Part shown: one piece after another, positions 1-53,265 of the stretch
Position numbering within the stretch: position 1 is the stretch's first letter
Layout of the letters: each line of letters begins with the position of its first letter
Source of the DNA: a bacterium
Lineage (GTDB): Bacteria; Patescibacteriota; Andersenbacteria; UBA10190; CAIZMI01
DNA: 64,000 bases
Direction: 5' to 3'
NCBI GenBank assembly: GCA_030647555.1
Contig: JAUSJG010000004.1
Location: 36,661 to 100,660, forward strand
Translations under genes and position numbers: made by a program
The notes under the pieces: model-generated
Databases searched by the model: none
What the model was told of the DNA's origin: nothing
The model's input: the letters and a program-made list of their open reading frames with translations, nothing else

Positions 1-51
1 TATACTGGCTAAAATTTGGAACCGGCGTTAAAATGTTGTTGACACAAATAA

Positions 52-5097: not shown

Positions 5098-5599
5098 TGA
5101 TTTTTTCCGTTCCAAAATGATAAAGGCGCAAGTCGGTGATACCGCGATCAATTCCATTCGCACTGCACGTCTCGGCAAGACGTTGTTCCGGTTTTTTATA
5201 TATCGAAGCCGGTAGGGAATAAGCAATTTTGCTCGTTTCCGTTCTTATTAGTAAACCATTTTCTTGTTTTAACTCACTAATATGAGACAGTAGGTGTGGC
5301 GTTTTAATCATCAATAATTCGTAAGTTAAAAATGGTAGATCGTTTTTTCTAAAGGCATACGTTTTTGCCAGGGAAATTGTGTGTGCTTGAATTTCTTCAC
5401 AAATGGTAGATTTAGAAGGAAAAATGGATCCGACTCGTCCCCTCGGTGTTAGCCCAATTCGTTCAAAGACGGCTATAAATATACCATTCTTTGCCCTTGA
5501 GAGCTCGGGCGGTAATTCATAAGGAATTCGGTAAAGCCCTTGCTTCAAGATGTAGTATTCAAAAGTTTTTCGAACAATTTCTATCGACAATTCTCGCAT
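5084..5599 (-). CDS. AMMECR1-domain protein
   Basis: AMMECR1-like motif block GIFIAVFERIGLTPRGRVGSI; 171 aa. Confidence 0.55.
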   Translation of the reverse strand: MRELSIEIVRKTFEYYILKQGLYRIPYELPPELSRAKNGIFIAVFERIGLTPRGRVGSIFPSKSTICEEIQAHTISLAKTYAFRKNDLPFLTYELLMIKTPHLLSHISELKQENGLLIRTETSKIAYSLPASIYKKPEQRLAETCSANGIDRGITDLRLYHFGTEKINEHF

Positions 5600-5657
5600 A
5601 TCTTAATCTTAACACCCTTAGATTGGGGATAAAAGCAATTTTGTCTATAATGAATAG

Positions 5658-6512
5658 GTGAATATTCATGAGAAATTGATTAACGTGTTTGGTGTACCTG
5701 TCGTTTTGGCGAGAAAACAAGATGTAGTTTTATGGTGCAAGAAAAGAATTACGGCAAACATTAAAACCAGAGTTGTTACTGCTAATCCAGAAATATTATT
5801 ACAGGCTCGTAGCGATGCTTGGTATCATACGGTGGTTCGAACAGCGGACCTTGTTACTCCGGATGGTGCCGGAGTTTGCTGGGCAGCAGTTTTTTGGGGG
5901 TTGGCCGATCAATCGCGCGACGTTTTTGATATTATTAAATTATTCGTGAGTACGTTGTGGGAAGTAGTTTTTGGTAATAAGAACAGTGGATATTTTCCTG
6001 AACGGGTTTCAGGCTCTGACTTGCTTTGGGATATTGCAAAATTGGCCGAACAATTAAATAAAAAAGTATATTTAATTGGCGGGGAAAATGGGACCGCACA
6101 ACGGGCAGCGATGCGTATAAAAGGTGAATGTCAAAACCTAAATATTCAAGCGTTTGGTTTAAATCATGTCGCTACGCCATATTCAGTCTATTCATTGCAC
6201 AATGAAATTGAAAATTTTCAACCGGATATTATCTTTGTGGCGTATGGATCGCCAAAACAAGAGGAGTGGATTAATCAAAATATGCATCGGTATTCCTCGA
6301 TAGGGCTGGCAATGGGCGTTGGTGGAGCATTAGACTTTATTGCCGGTAATACGGTCCGTGCGCCATTGCGTTTGCAAAATCATGCGTTAGAATGGTTTTG
6401 GCGGTTATATCAACGGCCTTCAAGATTTATTCGGGTATTTCGAGCAATTATTGTGTTTCCGGTAATAATTCTTATTTCACAACTTAAAAAGTTTTATGCA
6501 AGAAAAATCTGA
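5658..6512 (+). CDS. WecB/TagA/CpsF-family glycosyltransferase (GT26)
   Basis: Family-typical blocks DGAGVCWAA, IGGENGTAQRAAMRIK and FVAYGSPKQEEWI. Confidence 0.8.
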   Translation: MNIHEKLINVFGVPVVLARKQDVVLWCKKRITANIKTRVVTANPEILLQARSDAWYHTVVRTADLVTPDGAGVCWAAVFWGLADQSRDVFDIIKLFVSTLWEVVFGNKNSGYFPERVSGSDLLWDIAKLAEQLNKKVYLIGGENGTAQRAAMRIKGECQNLNIQAFGLNHVATPYSVYSLHNEIENFQPDIIFVAYGSPKQEEWINQNMHRYSSIGLAMGVGGALDFIAGNTVRAPLRLQNHALEWFWRLYQRPSRFIRVFRAIIVFPVIILISQLKKFYARKI

Positions 6513-18841: not shown

Positions 18842-19801
18842 ATGGACACAAAACAAAAACCGAGCCTTCCCCACCTGGATAAATATATTTTGCATTTGAT
18901 CACACACAACTATTCAAAAGAAACAATTTATAATTACGAAAGAGATTTGCAACTGTTGGAAAATTTTTTGAAAAATGATTTGAAAATCCCCTTCCAAAAA
19001 TTCGATAAGCAAGCATTGGAGCTTTATAAAGCCGAGTTGGTTTCGATTGATCGAAAAACGGCAAATGGAGTTACCGCGGGGGCCTCTACCCTATCGTCTC
19101 GTTCCATCAACAGGGCGCTTTCCGCTTTTCGTTCTTATTTATCATTTTTAATTGCAAATGATATTCCGTGTCCTTTACCGCGTGAAGCAGTCACATTAAT
19201 TCGAATGGAAAGACGTCACGCGCGCGTAGCCGAATTGGAAGAATTGATTCGTTTGATTGAAGCACCGACAACAATGGAAAAAAATAAAGAAATTGCGTTG
19301 CGAAATCGTGCGATACTTGAAACATTGTTTGCAACCGGAATGAGAATATCAGAACTCGTGTCATTAAATTGCGATCAAGTGGACGGAAAAGGAAAGATAT
19401 TTGTCAAAGGAAAAGGGAAAAAAGAAAGATTTGTTTATATGACGCCCAGGGCTACGGAATATGTTAATCGGTATGTGTCATTGCATAAGGACAAAAAAGG
19501 CGCGCTGTTTACCCCCCTGCGTGGCAGAAACGCAAAATCACAGAAAGCGAGAATATCAACAAACTATCTGCAAGATAAAATAAAAAAATATCGGGAGGCA
19601 CTTGGAATTGTTGTGCCAACATCGGCCCATTCCCTAAGACATGGGTTTGCTACTTATCTCGCCGAGTCGGGTGCCAACCCCGCGGCTATTCAAATATTGC
19701 TCGGCCACGAATCTTTGGAAACCACAACGAGATATGTGCATCCCTCCGACAGGTTTGCCGAAACAACGCACAAAAAATTTCACCCGCTGCAAAACATCTA
19801 A
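18842..19801 (+). CDS. tyrosine site-specific recombinase (XerC/XerD-like)
   Basis: Catalytic box HSLRHGFATYLAESGANPAAIQILLGHESLETTTRYVH containing the R..H..R..Y signature. Confidence 0.85.
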   Translation: MDTKQKPSLPHLDKYILHLITHNYSKETIYNYERDLQLLENFLKNDLKIPFQKFDKQALELYKAELVSIDRKTANGVTAGASTLSSRSINRALSAFRSYLSFLIANDIPCPLPREAVTLIRMERRHARVAELEELIRLIEAPTTMEKNKEIALRNRAILETLFATGMRISELVSLNCDQVDGKGKIFVKGKGKKERFVYMTPRATEYVNRYVSLHKDKKGALFTPLRGRNAKSQKARISTNYLQDKIKKYREALGIVVPTSAHSLRHGFATYLAESGANPAAIQILLGHESLETTTRYVHPSDRFAETTHKKFHPLQNI

Positions 19802-20105: not shown

Positions 20106-20576
20106 CTATCCTTTCGTTACGCAAACACTCGGTTCGTAACCCGCATCAATCGCCTCTTGTTCCGTTTTAAAGAAAACCAGGTTTTCTTCTTTAATACGTT
20201 TAACTTCGGCGCAACTTGTAAAATAGTATTTTGTGCCGTTTATCGACGCGGCATATTGGCCATTACCGGTTGTAGTACTATTTGTTGCATTATCGGTAGT
20301 TTCTCCTGCAACGCGTGGAAGCATACTCGCAACGGGAGTGGTTTTGGTCGCCGAGGTCAATACTGCGATATCGGCATCCGAAAACACTGATGGAACTGCG
20401 TTTGTGCCCTGAAAAACGATCGGAGACGCTTTTTTAGTCTCCGATGACCAATAACCCACCAAGTAGCCCAGAATCACCAGAAATACGCCTAAAACCCACA
20501 TAAAAACTTTGTCCTCTCGCTTGGCGGTCAATTTTTGCCATTGGTCAGTTACGCTCATGTTAAACATATGGTACAA
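20106..20576 (-). CDS. membrane-anchored protein with C-terminal Ada-like metal-binding motif
   Basis: One TM segment; C-terminus GTKYYFTSCAEVKRIKEENLVFFKTEQEAIDAGYEPSVC resembles the Ada N-terminal Zn-binding pattern. Confidence 0.35.
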   Translation of the reverse strand: MYHMFNMSVTDQWQKLTAKREDKVFMWVLGVFLVILGYLVGYWSSETKKASPIVFQGTNAVPSVFSDADIAVLTSATKTTPVASMLPRVAGETTDNATNSTTTGNGQYAASINGTKYYFTSCAEVKRIKEENLVFFKTEQEAIDAGYEPSVCVTKG

Positions 20577-20655: not shown

Positions 20656-21915
20656 ATGGAATACGCCTTTTTTCTTGGAAGCAACCCCGGTCTATCGGCC
20701 GTTGAGGTTCACGACTATTTTAAACGCATAAAAATTGTGGCGGATTTTGATTTAACTCGCCTGCCAAAATATTTAATAGTAAAAACCGATGAAACATTGA
20801 AGTGTCAGGCGATTATTGACGGTTTGGGCGGTACGCCGATGATCGCGCAAATAATCGGGGAATTGCCGGATTTGTCCGCCGAAACAATTATTGAAAAAAC
20901 CGGTTTGGAGAGTCGATTTTCGGAAGGACAAAAACCAATTTTCTCAATTTCTTTTGAAACACTTGGTACTTCCCTGCCCGCCTCAAAAAGTCCGCGTGAA
21001 ATTAGAACATTGGGGATAGAAATAAAAAAACTATTGAATAAAAAAGGTTGTCGTGTGGTGGTTCCGCAAATTGGAACTTCATTGAGCACCGCGCAATTAT
21101 TTAATTCAGGCGTGCCGTTTAAGGCGGTTGGTATCCACATTATTGAGCTTGAAAGTGGTCGCTATGTCGCGATGATCGTTACCGCCGTGCAAGATATTGA
21201 TTTTTACACGCGCCGTGATCGAGAGCGTCCGGAAGCCGATCCGGGCAAAGGAATGTTGCCTGTTAAACTTGCGCAAATTTTTATTAATTTTACACAAGCG
21301 GAAATCGGTTCAAAAATATATGATCCGTTTTGTGGCGCGGGTACGATTGTCGCCGAGGCCATGTTACAAGGTTTTAATGTAATAGCTACAGATATTTCTC
21401 TAAGACAAGTTGAACGCACAAAAATTAATACCGATTGGTTAAAAAACACATTTCCTAATTTAGTTGATCCGAGAAAAAACATTGTCGTTATGGCGCAAGA
21501 TATCGAAAAACCGTTACGTGAGATCGAAAACAATTCGATTGACGCGATTGCTTCCGAGGGCTGGCTAGGGCCGGCTACCAACCACGAGTTATCGGCCTTC
21601 GAGATTGAAAATGTTTTCGTGAGAACCCAACAACTGCTTTATGCCCTGCTTGCCAATGTCAGTAGCGCGCTCAAAAGTGGGGCCACAGTGGTTGTGGCAC
21701 TCCCCGCTTTTCGCGTCGATAAACGCATCGTAAGAGCGCCGTTTATGCAAGAAGAATTGCGAAAATTTTTACCAAAGGGCTACAAAGTTGAAAGCCTTGT
21801 CCCGGAAGGTTGGACAAATCCTGCCTTTCGCGACGCCGGTCAAGGAATGATGTTGTATGGTCGCCCAGACGCGGTGATTCTTAGGGATATTGTGCGAATA
21901 AGAAAAACAAATTAG
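20656..21915 (+). CDS. class I SAM-dependent RNA methyltransferase (UPF0020/Trm11-like)
   Basis: Motif I KIYDPFCGAGTIVAEA; N-terminal THUMP-like region. Confidence 0.55.
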   Translation: MEYAFFLGSNPGLSAVEVHDYFKRIKIVADFDLTRLPKYLIVKTDETLKCQAIIDGLGGTPMIAQIIGELPDLSAETIIEKTGLESRFSEGQKPIFSISFETLGTSLPASKSPREIRTLGIEIKKLLNKKGCRVVVPQIGTSLSTAQLFNSGVPFKAVGIHIIELESGRYVAMIVTAVQDIDFYTRRDRERPEADPGKGMLPVKLAQIFINFTQAEIGSKIYDPFCGAGTIVAEAMLQGFNVIATDISLRQVERTKINTDWLKNTFPNLVDPRKNIVVMAQDIEKPLREIENNSIDAIASEGWLGPATNHELSAFEIENVFVRTQQLLYALLANVSSALKSGATVVVALPAFRVDKRIVRAPFMQEELRKFLPKGYKVESLVPEGWTNPAFRDAGQGMMLYGRPDAVILRDIVRIRKTN

Positions 21916-22016: not shown

Positions 22017-22589
22017 ATGTGGCTGATTAATAATCACAGGGACATTGTTCACATACCAATGAGTATGTTAATATATAATCACATTATGGATAAGATATTA
22101 AATCACTCAATAGACGAGAGGGTATATAAAAGCGCAGTACTTTACTTCATAAAGTACTGCAACAATCAGTATTTGCACGCGACAAAACTGAACAAGCTTT
22201 TGTATTACCTTGATTTTATCTACTATCGCGATCACAAAAAATCCGTCACGGGCGACACCTATATTCACCAAGGTTACGGCCCAGTTCCGGCGCGAATAGA
22301 TGAAATACTCGCCAGTTTGAAAAATGAAGGAGTGATAGAAACGGAAGCGGTTGCTCACAATGACGCGGAAATGATTAATTTCACCGTCAAAAACGAGGCG
22401 AAATTCGACGAAGCGGTTTTTACGCCCGATCAAAAAAAACTTCTAAAACAAATTTGCGATCAGTTTGGCGGTTGGCCGACGGAAAAAATAGTCGCACAAA
22501 CGCACCTTGAAGCGCCTTGGTTTTATTCCAAACCCTACGAAATCGTGGACTATTCTTACGCGCGCGATATAGATTTTTTTCGAGAGTAA
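22017..22589 (+). CDS. Panacea (DUF4065)-domain antitoxin-like protein
   Basis: KLNKLLYYLDFIYYRDHKKSVTGDTYIHQGYGPVPARIDE matches the DUF4065/Panacea core (KLqKLLYY ... YGPV); likely start at MDKIL (~22088). Confidence 0.55.
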   Translation: MWLINNHRDIVHIPMSMLIYNHIMDKILNHSIDERVYKSAVLYFIKYCNNQYLHATKLNKLLYYLDFIYYRDHKKSVTGDTYIHQGYGPVPARIDEILASLKNEGVIETEAVAHNDAEMINFTVKNEAKFDEAVFTPDQKKLLKQICDQFGGWPTEKIVAQTHLEAPWFYSKPYEIVDYSYARDIDFFRE

Positions 22590-22598
22590 CATCGAATT

Positions 22599-22985
22599 AT
22601 GGCTTGGGTGTATGTGGAACGGGAAAACTTTGTTCGGATGTGCGAAAAGGCGGGCATTTCAATCGTAGTACGAACGGCGATTAAAACTTGGGCGCCGAGC
22701 GTAAGCAACCTATATCAGTTGGCTCGACAAAAACTGATTTATCGTTCTCCTAAAAATCGTTATGAAATTTGGGCGGCGGGAATCCCAAATCCGGACAGTA
22801 ATAGAGGCAAAAGTGGCGGTTATCGCGTCGTCTATTTTTTTGATTTAACCGAAAAAACAATCAATCTGGACTTCATAGAGGAAAGAAAAGAACTCGGCTT
22901 CAAAAACGAAGGCCAAGCAAAAAAGAATCGCTACACCGATTACGTCAACCAACTGAAAATTTCTCTAAAAAAATTGGATGTTTAG
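22599..22985 (+). CDS. RelE/HigB (Gp49-like) family toxin-like protein
   Basis: GKSGGYRVVYFFDLTEKTINLDFIEERKE resembles the G.GYRV.Y core of HigB/Gp49-family toxins; lies 9 bp downstream of the Panacea gene. Confidence 0.5.
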   Translation: MAWVYVERENFVRMCEKAGISIVVRTAIKTWAPSVSNLYQLARQKLIYRSPKNRYEIWAAGIPNPDSNRGKSGGYRVVYFFDLTEKTINLDFIEERKELGFKNEGQAKKNRYTDYVNQLKISLKKLDV

Positions 22986-34559: not shown

Positions 34560-34799
34560 CAACAGACACCTCCTGTATCAAAGTCTTGTCTTGTTCTTTG
34601 ACAACAACCGGTGGTTTTTGTTACATTTCCAACTGAAGCATGCAATAATACCTTAAGAGGCGCTGGGGTGTTCCCTCGGAGATTCCGGGGCTTAAGCTCC
34701 AGATAACCACCTCTCAAGACGCTGCTTCTACTAGAAGATGATAAATTTGGATCGGGGCGTCCCCGGTCGGCAAGGGGTCCCGCAAGGGACTTTTTGTTA
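34560..34799 (+). ncRNA. candidate small structured RNA ending in an intrinsic terminator (identity unresolved)
   Basis: 515-bp gene-free interval with GC-rich paired segments (GGGGCGUCCCCGG ...); perfect terminator GGUCCC-GCAA-GGGAC + UUUUUGUU at 34776-34799. Confidence 0.3.
34775..34799 (+). terminator. rho-independent terminator
   Basis: ggtccc gcaa gggac followed by tttttgtt. Confidence 0.6.
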
Positions 34800-44904: not shown

Positions 44905-46311
44905 CTAGGAGCGCCGACTCTTTTGTCCACGATCTTGAGCGTGCTGGCGACGTTGCGCTGCCTTGCTCACCTCTGGCACCGTGACCTCGGACAGAAACGT
45001 CTCACACAACTCGCGGATGCGAGTCGCGTCGAGCCGGGCCTTTTCGACCTGGCTGTTGGTCAACGATCCATTCATGGTGATTCCGCTTGCCGCTTGGAAG
45101 TACCACCGATCGTTGGTCACGAACCCGTCGGCCGTCAGCAAGGCGTCATCAAAGAACGCCGTCTCCCGCTCTCCCTCTTCGGCCGCCAATTCTTCTTCGG
45201 CGACACGAATCGACTTAATGAGGTCGACCATGTCTTCCGAATTAAAAACTTGGTAGTTCGGAGCGATGAAGAAATGGCCGCCGACGCCCGATCTGATTTG
45301 GAAGACCATCGAGGCTTCCACCGGCCCGCCGTAGATCTTGGGCAATCGAGCGGCCTTTCCGAACGCCTTGTTGTCCGTCTCGCCGACGCACAACACCAAA
45401 GGTTTTCCGCTCTTGTGGTTGCAGACCTTGATGATCTGCGCCCCTCCTTGAGCGATGAACTCCTTGGCGTCCAGAAATTGTTGCTGCTCGGCAATTTCGG
45501 CTTCGAGCCAGGTGCGAACGAAGCCCTTCAGAGCCTCTGCCGAGACCTTTCCCGAGCGATGCATGGTCTCAACCATAGCCGCCACGTGCATCGGGTGGCC
45601 GGGTCGGCCGTTTTCCTCCGTGCACTGCTTCATGAGGCGCTGAATCTCGGAGTAGAGCTGGTGTTGTCCCAGCCCGGCCCCATAAAGCGTCGCCACGAAC
45701 ATCGACCGCCCTTCCTGGGCCCGCCGAATCGAACCTCCTTCACGTTCGGCCAAACAGCCCGCGGCGATCCGATCGAAATTCTTCGCCGGTCCGTCGCAGC
45801 CACGGTAGTCCGTTTTCAACAACGCGTACAAGTACAGCGACAACCAGCTGATCACTTCATCGAAGTCGTTGATCGAGCCGATTTTCTTGATGACCTGTTC
45901 CGCGTGCCACACGTGCGGCGACGCGTTGGCGTCACTGTTCAGGACCTTCTCGACGAACAAGTCGAGACGCTCGTTTTGTTCTCGCATTTCCAAGAACTTC
46001 ATCACGAGCGAGGTCGCACACTCATTGTCACTGCTTCCGTCGCGCTGGTGTTCATCAAGCGGATCCCCTTTGCCACCACACCCAACGCGCAGGCGACCGT
46101 GCTGATGAAGCTGGTCGAACCAGTCACCATCATGCAGGTTTTTGTCATACAAGACTACCTTGGCGTTAAAGATGCCCGTGAATTTTTCATCACCAAACAT
46201 CCTCAGGATGCAGACGGACGACGCTTCGTCCAAATGAGCCATGAGTTCCATGTCATGAACAATGATTTCAGTGACGGGAACCGCGCTGACCAGAGTTTCA
46301 TTACTCATCTT
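44905..46311 (-). CDS. hypothetical protein encoded by a high-GC (about 57%) foreign segment
   Basis: Long ORFs on both strands, a hallmark of high GC. The minus-strand product has normal amino-acid composition; the plus-strand mirror is R/L/V-rich. Likely start at MSNETLV. No recognisable family. Confidence 0.45.
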   Translation of the reverse strand, partial: KMSNETLVSAVPVTEIIVHDMELMAHLDEASSVCILRMFGDEKFTGIFNAKVVLYDKNLHDGDWFDQLHQHGRLRVGCGGKGDPLDEHQRDGSSDNECATSLVMKFLEMREQNERLDLFVEKVLNSDANASPHVWHAEQVIKKIGSINDFDEVISWLSLYLYALLKTDYRGCDGPAKNFDRIAAGCLAEREGGSIRRAQEGRSMFVATLYGAGLGQHQLYSEIQRLMKQCTEENGRPGHPMHVAAMVETMHRSGKVSAEALKGFVRTWLEAEIAEQQQFLDAKEFIAQGGAQIIKVCNHKSGKPLVLCVGETDNKAFGKAARLPKIYGGPVEASMVFQIRSGVGGHFFIAPNYQVFNSEDMVDLIKSIRVAEEELAAEEGERETAFFDDALLTADGFVTNDRWYFQAASGITMNGSLTNSQVEKARLDATRIRELCETFLSEVTVPEVSKAAQRRQHAQDRGQKSRRS

Positions 46312-46504
46312 TCTCTTCCTTCTTATTTGGTCCCCGAGGGGACGTTGGGAAAACAGCGAACCAGACTTTGAGACGGCACCCGTCTCTCTCATGAGCGTGT
46401 TTTTACCTCAAAACAAGCTCATAAAAGCAGGTGAAATAAGAGAAAAGTATACTCCCGAAATCAGATTTTGTCAATGGTGCCGGTTTGGAGGTATTATGAG
46501 CATG

Positions 46505-52090: not shown

Positions 52091-52183
52091 TTATGCTAAT
52101 GGAAATAAAAATGATGTCAAGAGAATATCCCCCGTCGCCACGTAAAGTCGCTTCGGCAACCACGCGGCTATGGGGGATTATTT

Positions 52184-52231
52184 TTCTTTGTGAAGAAAAA
52201 TAAAAAATCCATGCGCCGGTGCACATGGATT
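52184..52231 (-). terminator. rho-independent terminator after small membrane protein gene 1
   Basis: Minus-strand RNA AAUCCAUG-UGCACCGGCG-CAUGGAUU followed by UUUUUAUUUUU. Confidence 0.6.
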
Positions 52232-52248
52232 ATCTCGCGTAATTCGAC

Positions 52249-52510
52249 CTATTTGGTCTGGTCGGTAAACCGATCTTCGTCACCGCTCATAAAGTGAGCG
52301 ACGGCAAAAACCAGAAAACTTGCTACACAAATATTGACTGGCCAATAACTTACTAGGGTCGAGAATGTGCTGGAGAAATAGAACTTTAATACCGTGTTTG
52401 AAAATAACCCGACAAATCCAACCACAGTGATAATCACAATCTGGCTAGCAAAGAGTGCACCGGAAACTAGAGCAATGACACCACTTGATACCCCGACAAT
52501 GCGCAGCATG
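52249..52510 (-). CDS. small hydrophobic membrane protein (about 87 aa), paralog 1
   Basis: Likely start MLRIVGV (the ORF's upstream extension is the conserved leader); 2-3 TM helices. Confidence 0.4.
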
Positions 52511-52536
52511 GCAAATTCCTTATTCTTGTTCAAGAT

Positions 52537-52612
52537 GAAAAACGAACTAAACTGTGGGTTTAAACCCAACCAGGCACAGTAGTCCCGAAATATCGGTTTG
52601 TCAAGCACAGAC
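52537..52612 (-). promoter_or_regulatory. duplicated promoter/operator element, copy 1 (TTGACA + perfect palindrome GTTGGGTTTAAACCCAAC)
   Basis: Minus-strand sequence cTTGACAaaccgatatttcgggactactgtgcctgGTTGGGTTTAAACCCAcag...; about 85% identical to copy 2. Confidence 0.45.
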
Positions 52613-52645
52613 TAAAAAAAGACCCGCCTTATTGGGGCGGGGGCT
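52613..52645 (-). terminator. rho-independent terminator after small membrane protein gene 2
   Basis: Minus-strand RNA CCCGCC-CCAAUAAG-GCGGGUC followed by UUUUUUU. Confidence 0.55.
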
Positions 52646-52657
52646 GACAGAGCGTCT

Positions 52658-52912
52658 TTACTTTGGTTGCGTAGCGCGAGTTTCTGAAAGCACGCAGGAG
52701 GCTAGAATGAAAACGATCATGCTGGGCACAAGAACACCGAACGCCCCAAAACCGAACCAAGCAACAAATAGATCTGTGTGAATGAACTTCAGGCCAGTGC
52801 TCCAAAAGGTTGACATGGCAGCATCAACAACGAAACAACAGCCTTGAACAGCAAAGACCAATGCTTCAATCAGAAAAACGACTCCGCTCAATGCACGGAC
52901 AAATCGTAACAT
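52658..52912 (-). CDS. small hydrophobic membrane protein (84 aa), paralog 2
   Basis: Starts MLRFVRAL; similar to paralog 1 in length, N-terminus (MLR.V) and hydrophobicity. Confidence 0.4.
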   Translation of the reverse strand: MLRFVRALSGVVFLIEALVFAVQGCCFVVDAAMSTFWSTGLKFIHTDLFVAWFGFGAFGVLVPSMIVFILASCVLSETRATQPK

Positions 52913-52935
52913 GGCAATTCCCCTTAGTCTGAAGT

Positions 52936-53006
52936 GAAAAACGAACCAGAGTGTGGGTTTAAACCCAACTTGGCAGGTTATTCTCGAAATATCGATTTGT
53001 CAAGCA
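52936..53006 (-). promoter_or_regulatory. duplicated promoter/operator element, copy 2
   Basis: Minus-strand sequence cTTGACAaatcgatatttcgagaataacctgccaaGTTGGGTTTAAACCCAcac... Confidence 0.45.
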
Positions 53007-53265
53007 TCACTACTTTTTTGTGGTGCCCTAAAACACATCTCACAACAAATGTATGTGTTGTTATAACCCCACGTCGCCTCGCCCTGCGGGGCGGGCTATG
53101 CGGGGCACCACTTCGCTTTTTATAATAAAGAAGATTGAGTTTGTTATTATCAAACATGCCTGCACCGCGAAGCTCTTCATGTAAGTGAAGAGCGAAGTGG
53201 TGGACAAGATTTACATTAAATGTTAAATAGGAGGCAATCAGTTTTCGTCCTTCATCTATATTGCA

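Follow-up and report, generated by a model that had tools for sequence, protein, structure and literature searches.

A candidate operator palindrome conserved before diverging membrane micro-protein genes in a strain-variable slot upstream of hrcA in an Andersenbacteria genome

What is a perfect palindrome doing at the presumed start of two neighbouring transcripts for small hydrophobic proteins, and does the position of the two genes in front of a heat-shock operon say anything about their control? The question is raised by two open reading frames (ORFs) in a 64,000-nucleotide (64-kb) stretch of contig JAUSJG010000004.1, from a metagenome-assembled patescibacterial genome of the Andersenbacteria, which we refer to as the window and whose numbering is used throughout. 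They lie on the minus strand as a paralogous tandem pair upstream of hrcA-grpE-dnaK-dnaJ, on the same strand as this operon, which carries a CIRCE element (controlling inverted repeat of chaperone expression), and they occupy a slot whose content varies between strains. A third member of their family, encoded at the same place in a related locus (L076), provides the comparison on which our argument turns. Tentatively, we favour the reading in which the palindrome is a putative operator of a dimeric repressor that overlaps the transcription start site, and we regard the neighbourhood of the heat-shock operon as a consequence of the slot. The two genes and their signals are the following.

52658..52912, minus strand: gene 1, 84 amino acids (aa), MLRFV..., NCBI Q7S57_00810 (ORF list and hydropathy)
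52249..52509, minus strand: gene 2, 86 aa, MLRIV..., NCBI Q7S57_00805 (ORF list and hydropathy)
52998..53003, minus strand: -35 box TTGACA of gene 1 (sequence read and promoter pattern scan; invariant in three homologous leaders)
52975..52980, minus strand: -10 box TAACCT of gene 1, after a spacer of 17 nucleotides (nt) (promoter pattern scan)
52599..52604, minus strand: -35 box TTGACA of gene 2 (sequence read and promoter pattern scan)
52576..52581, minus strand: -10 box TACTGT of gene 2, after a 17-nt spacer (promoter pattern scan)
52954..52967, no strand assigned: perfect palindrome of 14 base pairs (bp), TGGGTTTAAACCCA, copy 1, starting 7 nt after the -10 box (exact match)
52555..52568, no strand assigned: 14-bp perfect palindrome TGGGTTTAAACCCA, copy 2 (exact match)
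52920..52925, minus strand: Shine-Dalgarno sequence AAGGGG of gene 1, 7 nt before the ATG at 52912
52517..52521, minus strand: Shine-Dalgarno sequence AAGGA of gene 2 (read from sequence)
52613..52641, minus strand: intrinsic terminator of gene 1 (stem 52641-52623 with 6 G-C pairs, then the T-run TCTTTTTTTA)
52196..52231, minus strand: intrinsic terminator of gene 2 (stem 52231-52206 with 11 pairs, then the T-run TTTTTATTTTT)

The original prediction had described two tandem paralogues for small hydrophobic proteins with MLR.V starts, each followed by its own intrinsic terminator, and this description holds, the sizes being 86 and 84 aa. The two proteins, annotated by NCBI as hypothetical, share 32% identity over 71 aa (E=1e-6), and hydropathy assigns to both two long hydrophobic helical segments. 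An AlphaFold2 model of the gene 1 protein likewise consists of two long helices in a generic two-helix hairpin (pLDDT, the predicted local distance difference test, 70); it was kept out of fold searching because a fold this generic matches anything. Judging by its own promoter and terminator, each gene is an autonomous unit. Across the three family members the ORF length is kept (84, 86 and 88 aa), each ORF has a correctly spaced Shine-Dalgarno sequence, the N-terminus reads M-[LV]-R-[FI]-[VI] and the two-helix hydropathy pattern is common to all, while the conserved residues are written with different synonymous codons (CGA, CGC and CGT for Arg3, TTA and CTG for Leu2). With Shine-Dalgarno spacing, ORF length, N-terminus and helix pattern all conserved, the genes look real, and the micro-proteins are very probably translated.

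The leaders of the two genes form a 72-nt direct repeat with 85% identity (52536-52607 and 52935-53006) and are far more alike than the genes themselves. The identity of about 85% claimed earlier is therefore confirmed, whereas the claimed length of 75 bp is not, as the distance from the -35 box to the ATG is ~90-95 nt; the transcribed leader would measure roughly 65 nt and is U-rich after the palindrome. TTGACA stands in each leader as had been stated (53003-52998 and 52604-52599), and the palindrome is indeed kept in both. It is shorter than proposed, however: the 18-bp sequence GTTGGGTTTAAACCCAAC is absent, both copies reading GTTGGGTTTAAACCCAC, in which the perfect palindrome comprises the 14 bp of TGGGTTTAAACCCA, with half-sites TGGGTT and AACCCA around a 2-bp centre. 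The -10 hexamers of the three leaders (TAACCT, TACTGT and TAGTGT) retain T1, A2 and T6, and their spacing from the -35 box is exactly 17 nt. From this arrangement, transcripts of the micro-genes are predicted to start 0-3 nt before the palindrome, which would then cover approximately +1 to +15. The prediction can be calibrated within the window, where TTGACA-16..18-TAnnnT occurs seven times, one occurrence being the hrcA promoter. At 34598 on the plus strand, a TTGACA-18-TACATT promoter precedes a DUF3800-V RNA (RF02964, 78.5 bits, 34634-34729) that begins 7 nt after the -10 box; the placement of this RNA is an independent calibration of the start-site prediction and indicates that the promoter grammar is valid in this organism. 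A dyad in the promoter spacer, TCGA-TATT-TCGA versus CCGA-TATT-TCGG, looked like covariation and was rejected, being absent in L076.

Taken within the window, the palindrome says little. The window contains 11 perfect 14-bp palindromes compared with 4.7 in shuffled sequence, so that a single one is unremarkable, and the two copies are identical by descent and do not constitute independent evidence. Beyond these two, a search of the 64 kb allowing up to two mismatches returned no further site. Since such palindromes are common here and the copies are related by descent, the case for a function must rest on other genomes.

Such a genome is represented by L076, whose 88-aa protein (MVRFIV...) belongs to the family (112 bits, E=4e-27, with the protein itself among the sequences of the profile) and follows the same hydropathy plan. 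Its gene is the positional orthologue of gene 2, with which it has in common the downstream terminator context and two elements described below, an A/T palindrome and hairpin B. The proteins of the window and of L076 are ~25-30% identical, and blastn found no DNA-level similarity between their coding sequences. Inside the variable block, the sole blastn similarity is the leader core, which is 83% identical over 52 nt without gaps (window 52605-52554, L076 2810-2861); in the same comparison the values are 84% for the hrcA promoter with CIRCE and 81% where the hrcA coding sequence begins. Of the nine core positions that differ, six belong to the 17-nt spacer, and the other three affect the -10 box (TACTGT to TAGTGT), the interval between the -10 box and the palindrome, and the 2-bp centre of the palindrome, where TA becomes AA (L076 reads TGGGTTAAAACCCA). 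Thus the three leaders agree in all 12 half-site bases (TGGGTT/AACCCA), in the -35 box, the T-A...T of the -10 box, the exact spacing and the non-palindromic flanks (GGT before, C after), whereas the surrounding leader positions have diverged by 17-35% and the sequences downstream of the palindrome no longer align convincingly between the window and L076. What exceeds chance in these sequences is that a diverged homologous leader of another organism has kept the palindrome, and by this comparison no part other than the -35 box is conserved as well as the palindrome. A core that remains 83% identical with intact half-sites, while the coding sequence has become unrecognisable, indicates purifying selection on the core. 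The leaders of unrelated genes found at the same place (141 aa in L076, 117 aa in L078) have the same promoter grammar without the ~21-nt palindrome block, which makes the block a separate module that goes with the membrane micro-protein genes.

We therefore turn to what this module might do. Under the operator reading, to which we incline with some reserve, a sigma-70-type promoter (TTGACA, 17 nt, TAnnnT) would drive each micro-gene unit, a dimeric helix-turn-helix regulator would bind the 14-bp inverted repeat at the transcription start, and the bound regulator would block RNA polymerase and so cause repression. We infer both binding and its repressive effect from the location and make-up of the repeat. 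A dyad between the -10 box and approximately +20 is what is found for repressor operators, and the present one is perfect over 14 bp and lies 7 nt after the -10 box; repressor operators typically sit around +1 to +15. The adjacent hrcA promoter has the same layout, with CIRCE as the inverted repeat. Arms that carry neither wobble nor compensatory changes fit sequence recognition better than a pairing requirement alone, and the only change in the palindrome falls in the centre of the dyad. Several points weigh against this reading. The -10 boxes are weak, matching TATAAT at 3/6 positions and escaping a stricter consensus scan, and the start site is a predicted one. HrcA is the only classical regulator among the ~30 window proteins scanned against Pfam, so a cognate regulator was not found there, and neither the 64-kb window nor ~70 kb of related loci contain further sites that would outline a regulon. 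Conservation statistics are thin, with only three leaders, two of them paralogues. Moreover, at the predicted mRNA 5' end this sequence is expected to fold into a stable hairpin of 5 bp, which alone could explain its conservation. The dimeric repressor or activator site suggested by the original prediction is plausible, although an RNA hairpin explains the same data almost as well; by analogy with CIRCE, which acts at both levels, operator and hairpin need not exclude one another.

The main alternative, an explanation at the RNA level to which we give only a little less weight, holds that the palindrome acts as a 5'-terminal stem-loop, UGGGU-UUAA-ACCCA, 0-3 nt from the mRNA 5' end, where it could guard the transcript from 5'-end-dependent decay or bind an RNA-binding protein. 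The predicted start 1-3 nt before the stem agrees with it, as does the predicted folding: the 5-bp stem with its tetraloop is at least 88% paired (~90%) between 15 and 45 °C in each of the three leaders, with more than 90% for copy 1, and is the sole consensus-fold element that they have in common, and the one substitution in L076 changes the tetraloop from UUAA to UAAA without touching the stem. A purely structural need, however, would tolerate G-U or swapped pairs, whereas all 10 stem bases (five pairs) are identical in the three leaders, without any covariation, despite 17-35% divergence around them. Nor does pairing explain the invariant flanks (GGT, C), the stem has only 5 bp, and the leader folding energies are no better than those of shuffles (z +0.25 to +0.55). 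A leader attenuator, suggested by an extended stem and U-run of copy 1, was rejected, the extended stem being absent in copy 2 and L076. A different use of leader RNA, in which the U-run GUUCGUUUUUC pairs in fourU style and masks the Shine-Dalgarno sequence as an RNA thermometer linked to heat stress, strikes us as hardly credible. The minimum-energy folds of both window leaders do show the U-rich block paired to the Shine-Dalgarno sequence, and the genes adjoin the heat-shock operon, but occlusion is no greater than with a shuffled intervening leader (it is reached or exceeded in 34%, 20% and 92% of shuffles), and the Shine-Dalgarno sequence of L076 is mostly open and lacks this pairing. The pairing registers also differ between leaders, the U-block aligns poorly with L076, Rfam recognises neither ROSE nor fourU nor another family, and the heat-shock adjacency is an accident of the variable slot described below.

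The palindrome might also have no function of its own, having been copied with the promoter at the duplication and being present in L076 by shared ancestry or recent cassette exchange. That perfect 14-bp palindromes are not rare in the window (the 11 against 4.7 in shuffles), that only three leaders from two lineages are available and that the window and the related loci scanned hold no other site all speak for such a view. We nevertheless consider it improbable: the coding sequence has diverged past DNA recognition while the core is kept at 83% with 12/12 half-site bases, the window and L076 leaders cease to align downstream of the palindrome, and the substitutions concentrate in the promoter spacer, as expected under selection. 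Even less probable to us is that the ORFs are untranslated, as small non-coding RNAs or decaying pseudo-genes. Their family has only three sequences among 5.8 billion and 1.84 billion proteins and is extremely divergent (~25-33% identity), which would suit that explanation; yet three ORFs of 84-88 codons have been kept open at the same Shine-Dalgarno distance, the codons of the conserved Leu2 and Arg3 have changed synonymously, the two-helix hydropathy is conserved and the region has no Rfam match.

The remaining part of the question concerns the heat-shock operon. Pfam confirms hrcA, grpE, dnaK and dnaJ, all downstream of the pair on the same strand, and together with CIRCE at 52090-52064 this bears out the genomic position originally described. 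The features that surround the pair are listed here.

52120-52115, minus strand: TTGACA of the hrcA promoter, upstream of hrcA
52090-52064, minus strand: CIRCE, TTAGCAGTC-N9-GAGTGCTAA, with one mismatch (read from sequence)
52207..53030, minus strand: strain-variable cassette segment holding both units, with unrelated DNA in L090 (blastn boundaries)
53065..53105, minus strand: hairpin repeat A on the upstream side of the slot, identical in L090 (nhmmer and RNA folds)
52124..52179, minus strand: hairpin repeat B, downstream of the slot and directly next to the hrcA -35 box; L076 and L090 also have it, with inner stems that differ

CIRCE (TTAGCACTC-N9-GAGTGCTAA) is absent from both micro-gene leaders and present only at hrcA. 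To place the pair in its lineage, related loci were compared by synteny through relatives of HrcA, the more distant named ones (~41-48% identity) being Patescibacteria of the Moranbacteria, Andersenbacteria and Parcubacteria. A frame consisting of a BNR protein, a 200-213-aa gene on the opposite strand and hrcA-grpE-dnaK-dnaJ is conserved; the space before hrcA is not, as the following comparison of HrcA identity to the window and of the content before hrcA illustrates (ORFan, an ORF without recognised relatives).

Window, HrcA as reference: the two micro-genes
L090, HrcA 99.6%: an unrelated 243-266-aa ORFan
L086-L089, HrcA 95.4%: an 82-aa Cys-rich soluble ORFan
L078, HrcA 87.5%: a 117-aa ORFan
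L076/L077, HrcA 86.7%: an 88-aa two-helix membrane protein and a 141-aa ORFan
L080, HrcA 73%: nothing
L082, HrcA 67%: nothing
L091, HrcA 64%: nothing

Five different ORFan sets occupy the slot across strains, each with its own TTGACA promoter and terminator, and Pfam, NCBIfam, PHROGs and PADLOC contain no match to any of the cargo proteins. On either side of the block that is exchanged between the window and L090, identity is 90-91% (213-aa gene and hrcA promoter), and everything described above for the micro-genes falls inside that block. By this comparison the pair is strain-variable cargo in a hypervariable slot. Since a strain with a 99.6% identical HrcA carries an unrelated gene at this position, adjacency to hrcA reflects the insertion slot and not co-regulation. 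The stress or heat-shock link that had been considered possible loses its footing with L090, with the other ORFans or empty slots of the remaining relatives and with a masking test no better than shuffles; on the sequences compared, the micro-gene pair is outside the heat-shock regulon, and a stress regulon is without evidence.

Several observations concern the slot itself. Hairpins A and B are related, imperfect repeats in direct orientation that bracket it (at ~1815-1860 and 2855-2900 in L090, and at 3243-3286 in L076). They have in common an outer stem, CCCC(C/G)C...G(T/G)GGGG, and the internal-loop bases CATAGC and GCGAC, while their inner stems differ between copies and still pair. No other copies were detected in the 64-kb window, and Rfam has no match to them; they may be recombination or insulator elements. 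Between the gene 2 terminator and hairpin B lies an A/T palindrome, TTTTTCTT-CACA-AAGAAAAA (52181-52200, minus strand), kept as TTTTCTTTGCAAAGAAAA in L076 and as TTTATTTGCAAAGAAAAA in L090, a possible upstream element of the hrcA promoter, or else a binding site of another kind. In L080 (HrcA 73%) an Hsp20 gene is inserted between grpE and dnaK (5331-5744), so that the content of the heat-shock operon also varies in the lineage.

Fast protein divergence, a conserved control region, tandem duplication and a strain-variable slot would together suit a role of the conflict or immunity type. One could go further and imagine the 52-nt promoter-palindrome block as a portable module that is carried with diversifying two-helix micro-proteins among strains of a patescibacterial lineage, swapped at a hairpin-bounded slot upstream of hrcA by a miniature cassette exchange without a recognisable integrase and silenced by a lineage-specific repressor, the cargo being under diversifying selection, for example for immunity or exclusion in episymbiont-host or phage conflict. 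We regard this wider scenario as a long shot.

Database searches confine the family to the members already named. Gene 1 and a three-sequence profile were run against 5.8 billion clusters (k-mer/HMMER), and 1.84 billion representatives were searched exhaustively with HMMER; both searches returned nothing but the three family members, so that the homology search proposed for the micro-proteins yielded only themselves and the 88-aa homologue of L076. Nothing rose above noise for these proteins in Pfam, NCBIfam, PHROGs or PADLOC. Rfam assigned no family to the leaders when the whole window was scanned at the gathering threshold, and at E<=10 the region gave only chance-level matches unrelated to them. 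The extended palindrome GTTGGGTTTAAACCCAC has 43 matches in 185,579 species-representative genomes, all in coding or unrelated contexts (amidase, PdxA-like motifs) and none with the leader context. The pattern TTGACA-N25-40-TGGGTTTAAACCCA has 31 matches in metagenomes of the Joint Genome Institute (JGI), approximately the chance number estimated by hand, without a homologue among them, and a scan of IMG/VR viral contigs for the leader pattern gave 0 matches.

Some of the metagenome matches were considered as candidates and set aside. Three sets in which TTGACAA is followed by a hairpin and the palindrome is extended (L051, L056 and L071; L054, L062 and L067, upstream of an Hsp20 gene; L052 and L055, upstream of a membrane protein) were judged to be unrelated repeats or terminators. 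In three JGI contigs from an unrelated organism (L054, L062, L067) the 14-mer forms the tip of a 32-bp perfect hairpin, ~30 nt after TTGACA and ~270 nt upstream of an Hsp20 gene; this was judged coincidental because the pattern search selects for such an arrangement. Neither the 14-mer nor the 12-mer turned up as an operator in the literature searched. With nothing in Rfam, no trace of the 14-mer in the literature searched and CIRCE only at hrcA, the earlier statement that the palindrome matches no known operator is upheld.

Two further regions of the window were recorded in passing. The segment 18842-22985 encodes a tyrosine recombinase (18842-19801), an Ada Zn-binding-domain protein (20106-20576, minus strand), a DNA-methylase-like protein (20656-21915), a SocA/Panacea antitoxin-domain protein (22017-22589) and an adjacent 128-aa ORFan (22599-22985), and it may be a small mobile or toxin-antitoxin island. 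At 44905-46392 (minus strand, 495 aa) and 44923-46371 (plus strand, 482 aa) two opposite ORFs overlap, neither of which matches Pfam; a TTGACA-17-TATACT promoter at 46474 on the minus strand favours the minus-strand ORF, and the spacer of this promoter (..GATTTCGGGA..) resembles that of the gene 2 promoter.

Patescibacteria, also termed the candidate phyla radiation (CPR), have tiny genomes and few regulators, and to our knowledge almost nothing is known about their transcriptional regulation. The finding is descriptive as it stands. A promoter-operator or 5'-hairpin architecture is in itself ordinary, but here, as far as the searches reach, the sequence matches nothing known and the genes are lineage-restricted orphans. 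Where a cis-element stays conserved and the cargo gene behind it diverges beyond recognition, one has a clear-cut and testable candidate for an operator or a 5' RNA element. The hypervariable ORFan slot with its hairpin repeats is the more unusual feature and may matter more, as a sub-kilobase slot of this kind offers a small model for the gain, exchange or birth of orphan genes in reduced genomes.

Among known systems, CIRCE/HrcA is close in layout. CIRCE is a known repressor operator that also folds in the mRNA, and, as proposed for the palindrome, it is an inverted repeat directly after a sigma-70-type -10 box and over the start site. The two are unrelated in sequence and geometry, with TTAGCACTC-N9-GAGTGCTAA for CIRCE and TGGGTT-N2-AACCCA here, and nothing indicates that HrcA binds the palindrome. 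Cro/CI-type (XRE-family) operators such as those of phage 434 span 14 bp and overlap a promoter or start site. By analogy, the palindrome resembles them in length, in its short conserved outer half-sites and in a tolerant A/T-rich centre; it differs in lacking any sequence similarity, and no XRE-family gene was identified nearby. The operator consensus of the GntR family (HutC type), NyGTMTAKACNy (PMC4494728), is likewise a short palindrome with GT and AC 4 nt apart and an A/T-rich centre, and GGGTTTAAACCC contains GT-TTAA-AC. Its M and K positions, however, correspond to T and A in the palindrome instead of A/C and G/T, L076 has AA in place of the central TA, and no GntR-family gene was found in the window, so we read the resemblance as generic.

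With regard to the RNA alternative, 5'-terminal stem-loops that stabilise mRNA, such as those of the E. coli ompA 5' untranslated region and the B. subtilis aprE and ermC leaders, act by structure, and their sequence varies freely. The predicted hairpin is similarly placed, a few nt from the mRNA 5' end and upstream of a U-rich leader and the Shine-Dalgarno sequence, but its sequence is invariant and its stem has only 5 bp. The proteins might recall type I toxins, which are hydrophobic, usually shorter than 60 aa and accompanied by an overlapping antisense RNA; the micro-proteins differ with their 84-88 aa and two helices, and no antisense promoter or terminator was noticed at the micro-genes, although no dedicated search was made. 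The slot, finally, invites comparison with flexible genomic islands, with which it has in common conserved flanks (90-91%) and unrelated inserts in strains whose HrcA is 95-99.6% identical. No integrase, tRNA or defence gene is present in the slot, and it differs from such islands in its small size of 0.2-1.3 kb, in a cargo of one or two ORFans that bring their own promoter and terminator, and in the two related hairpins that flank it.

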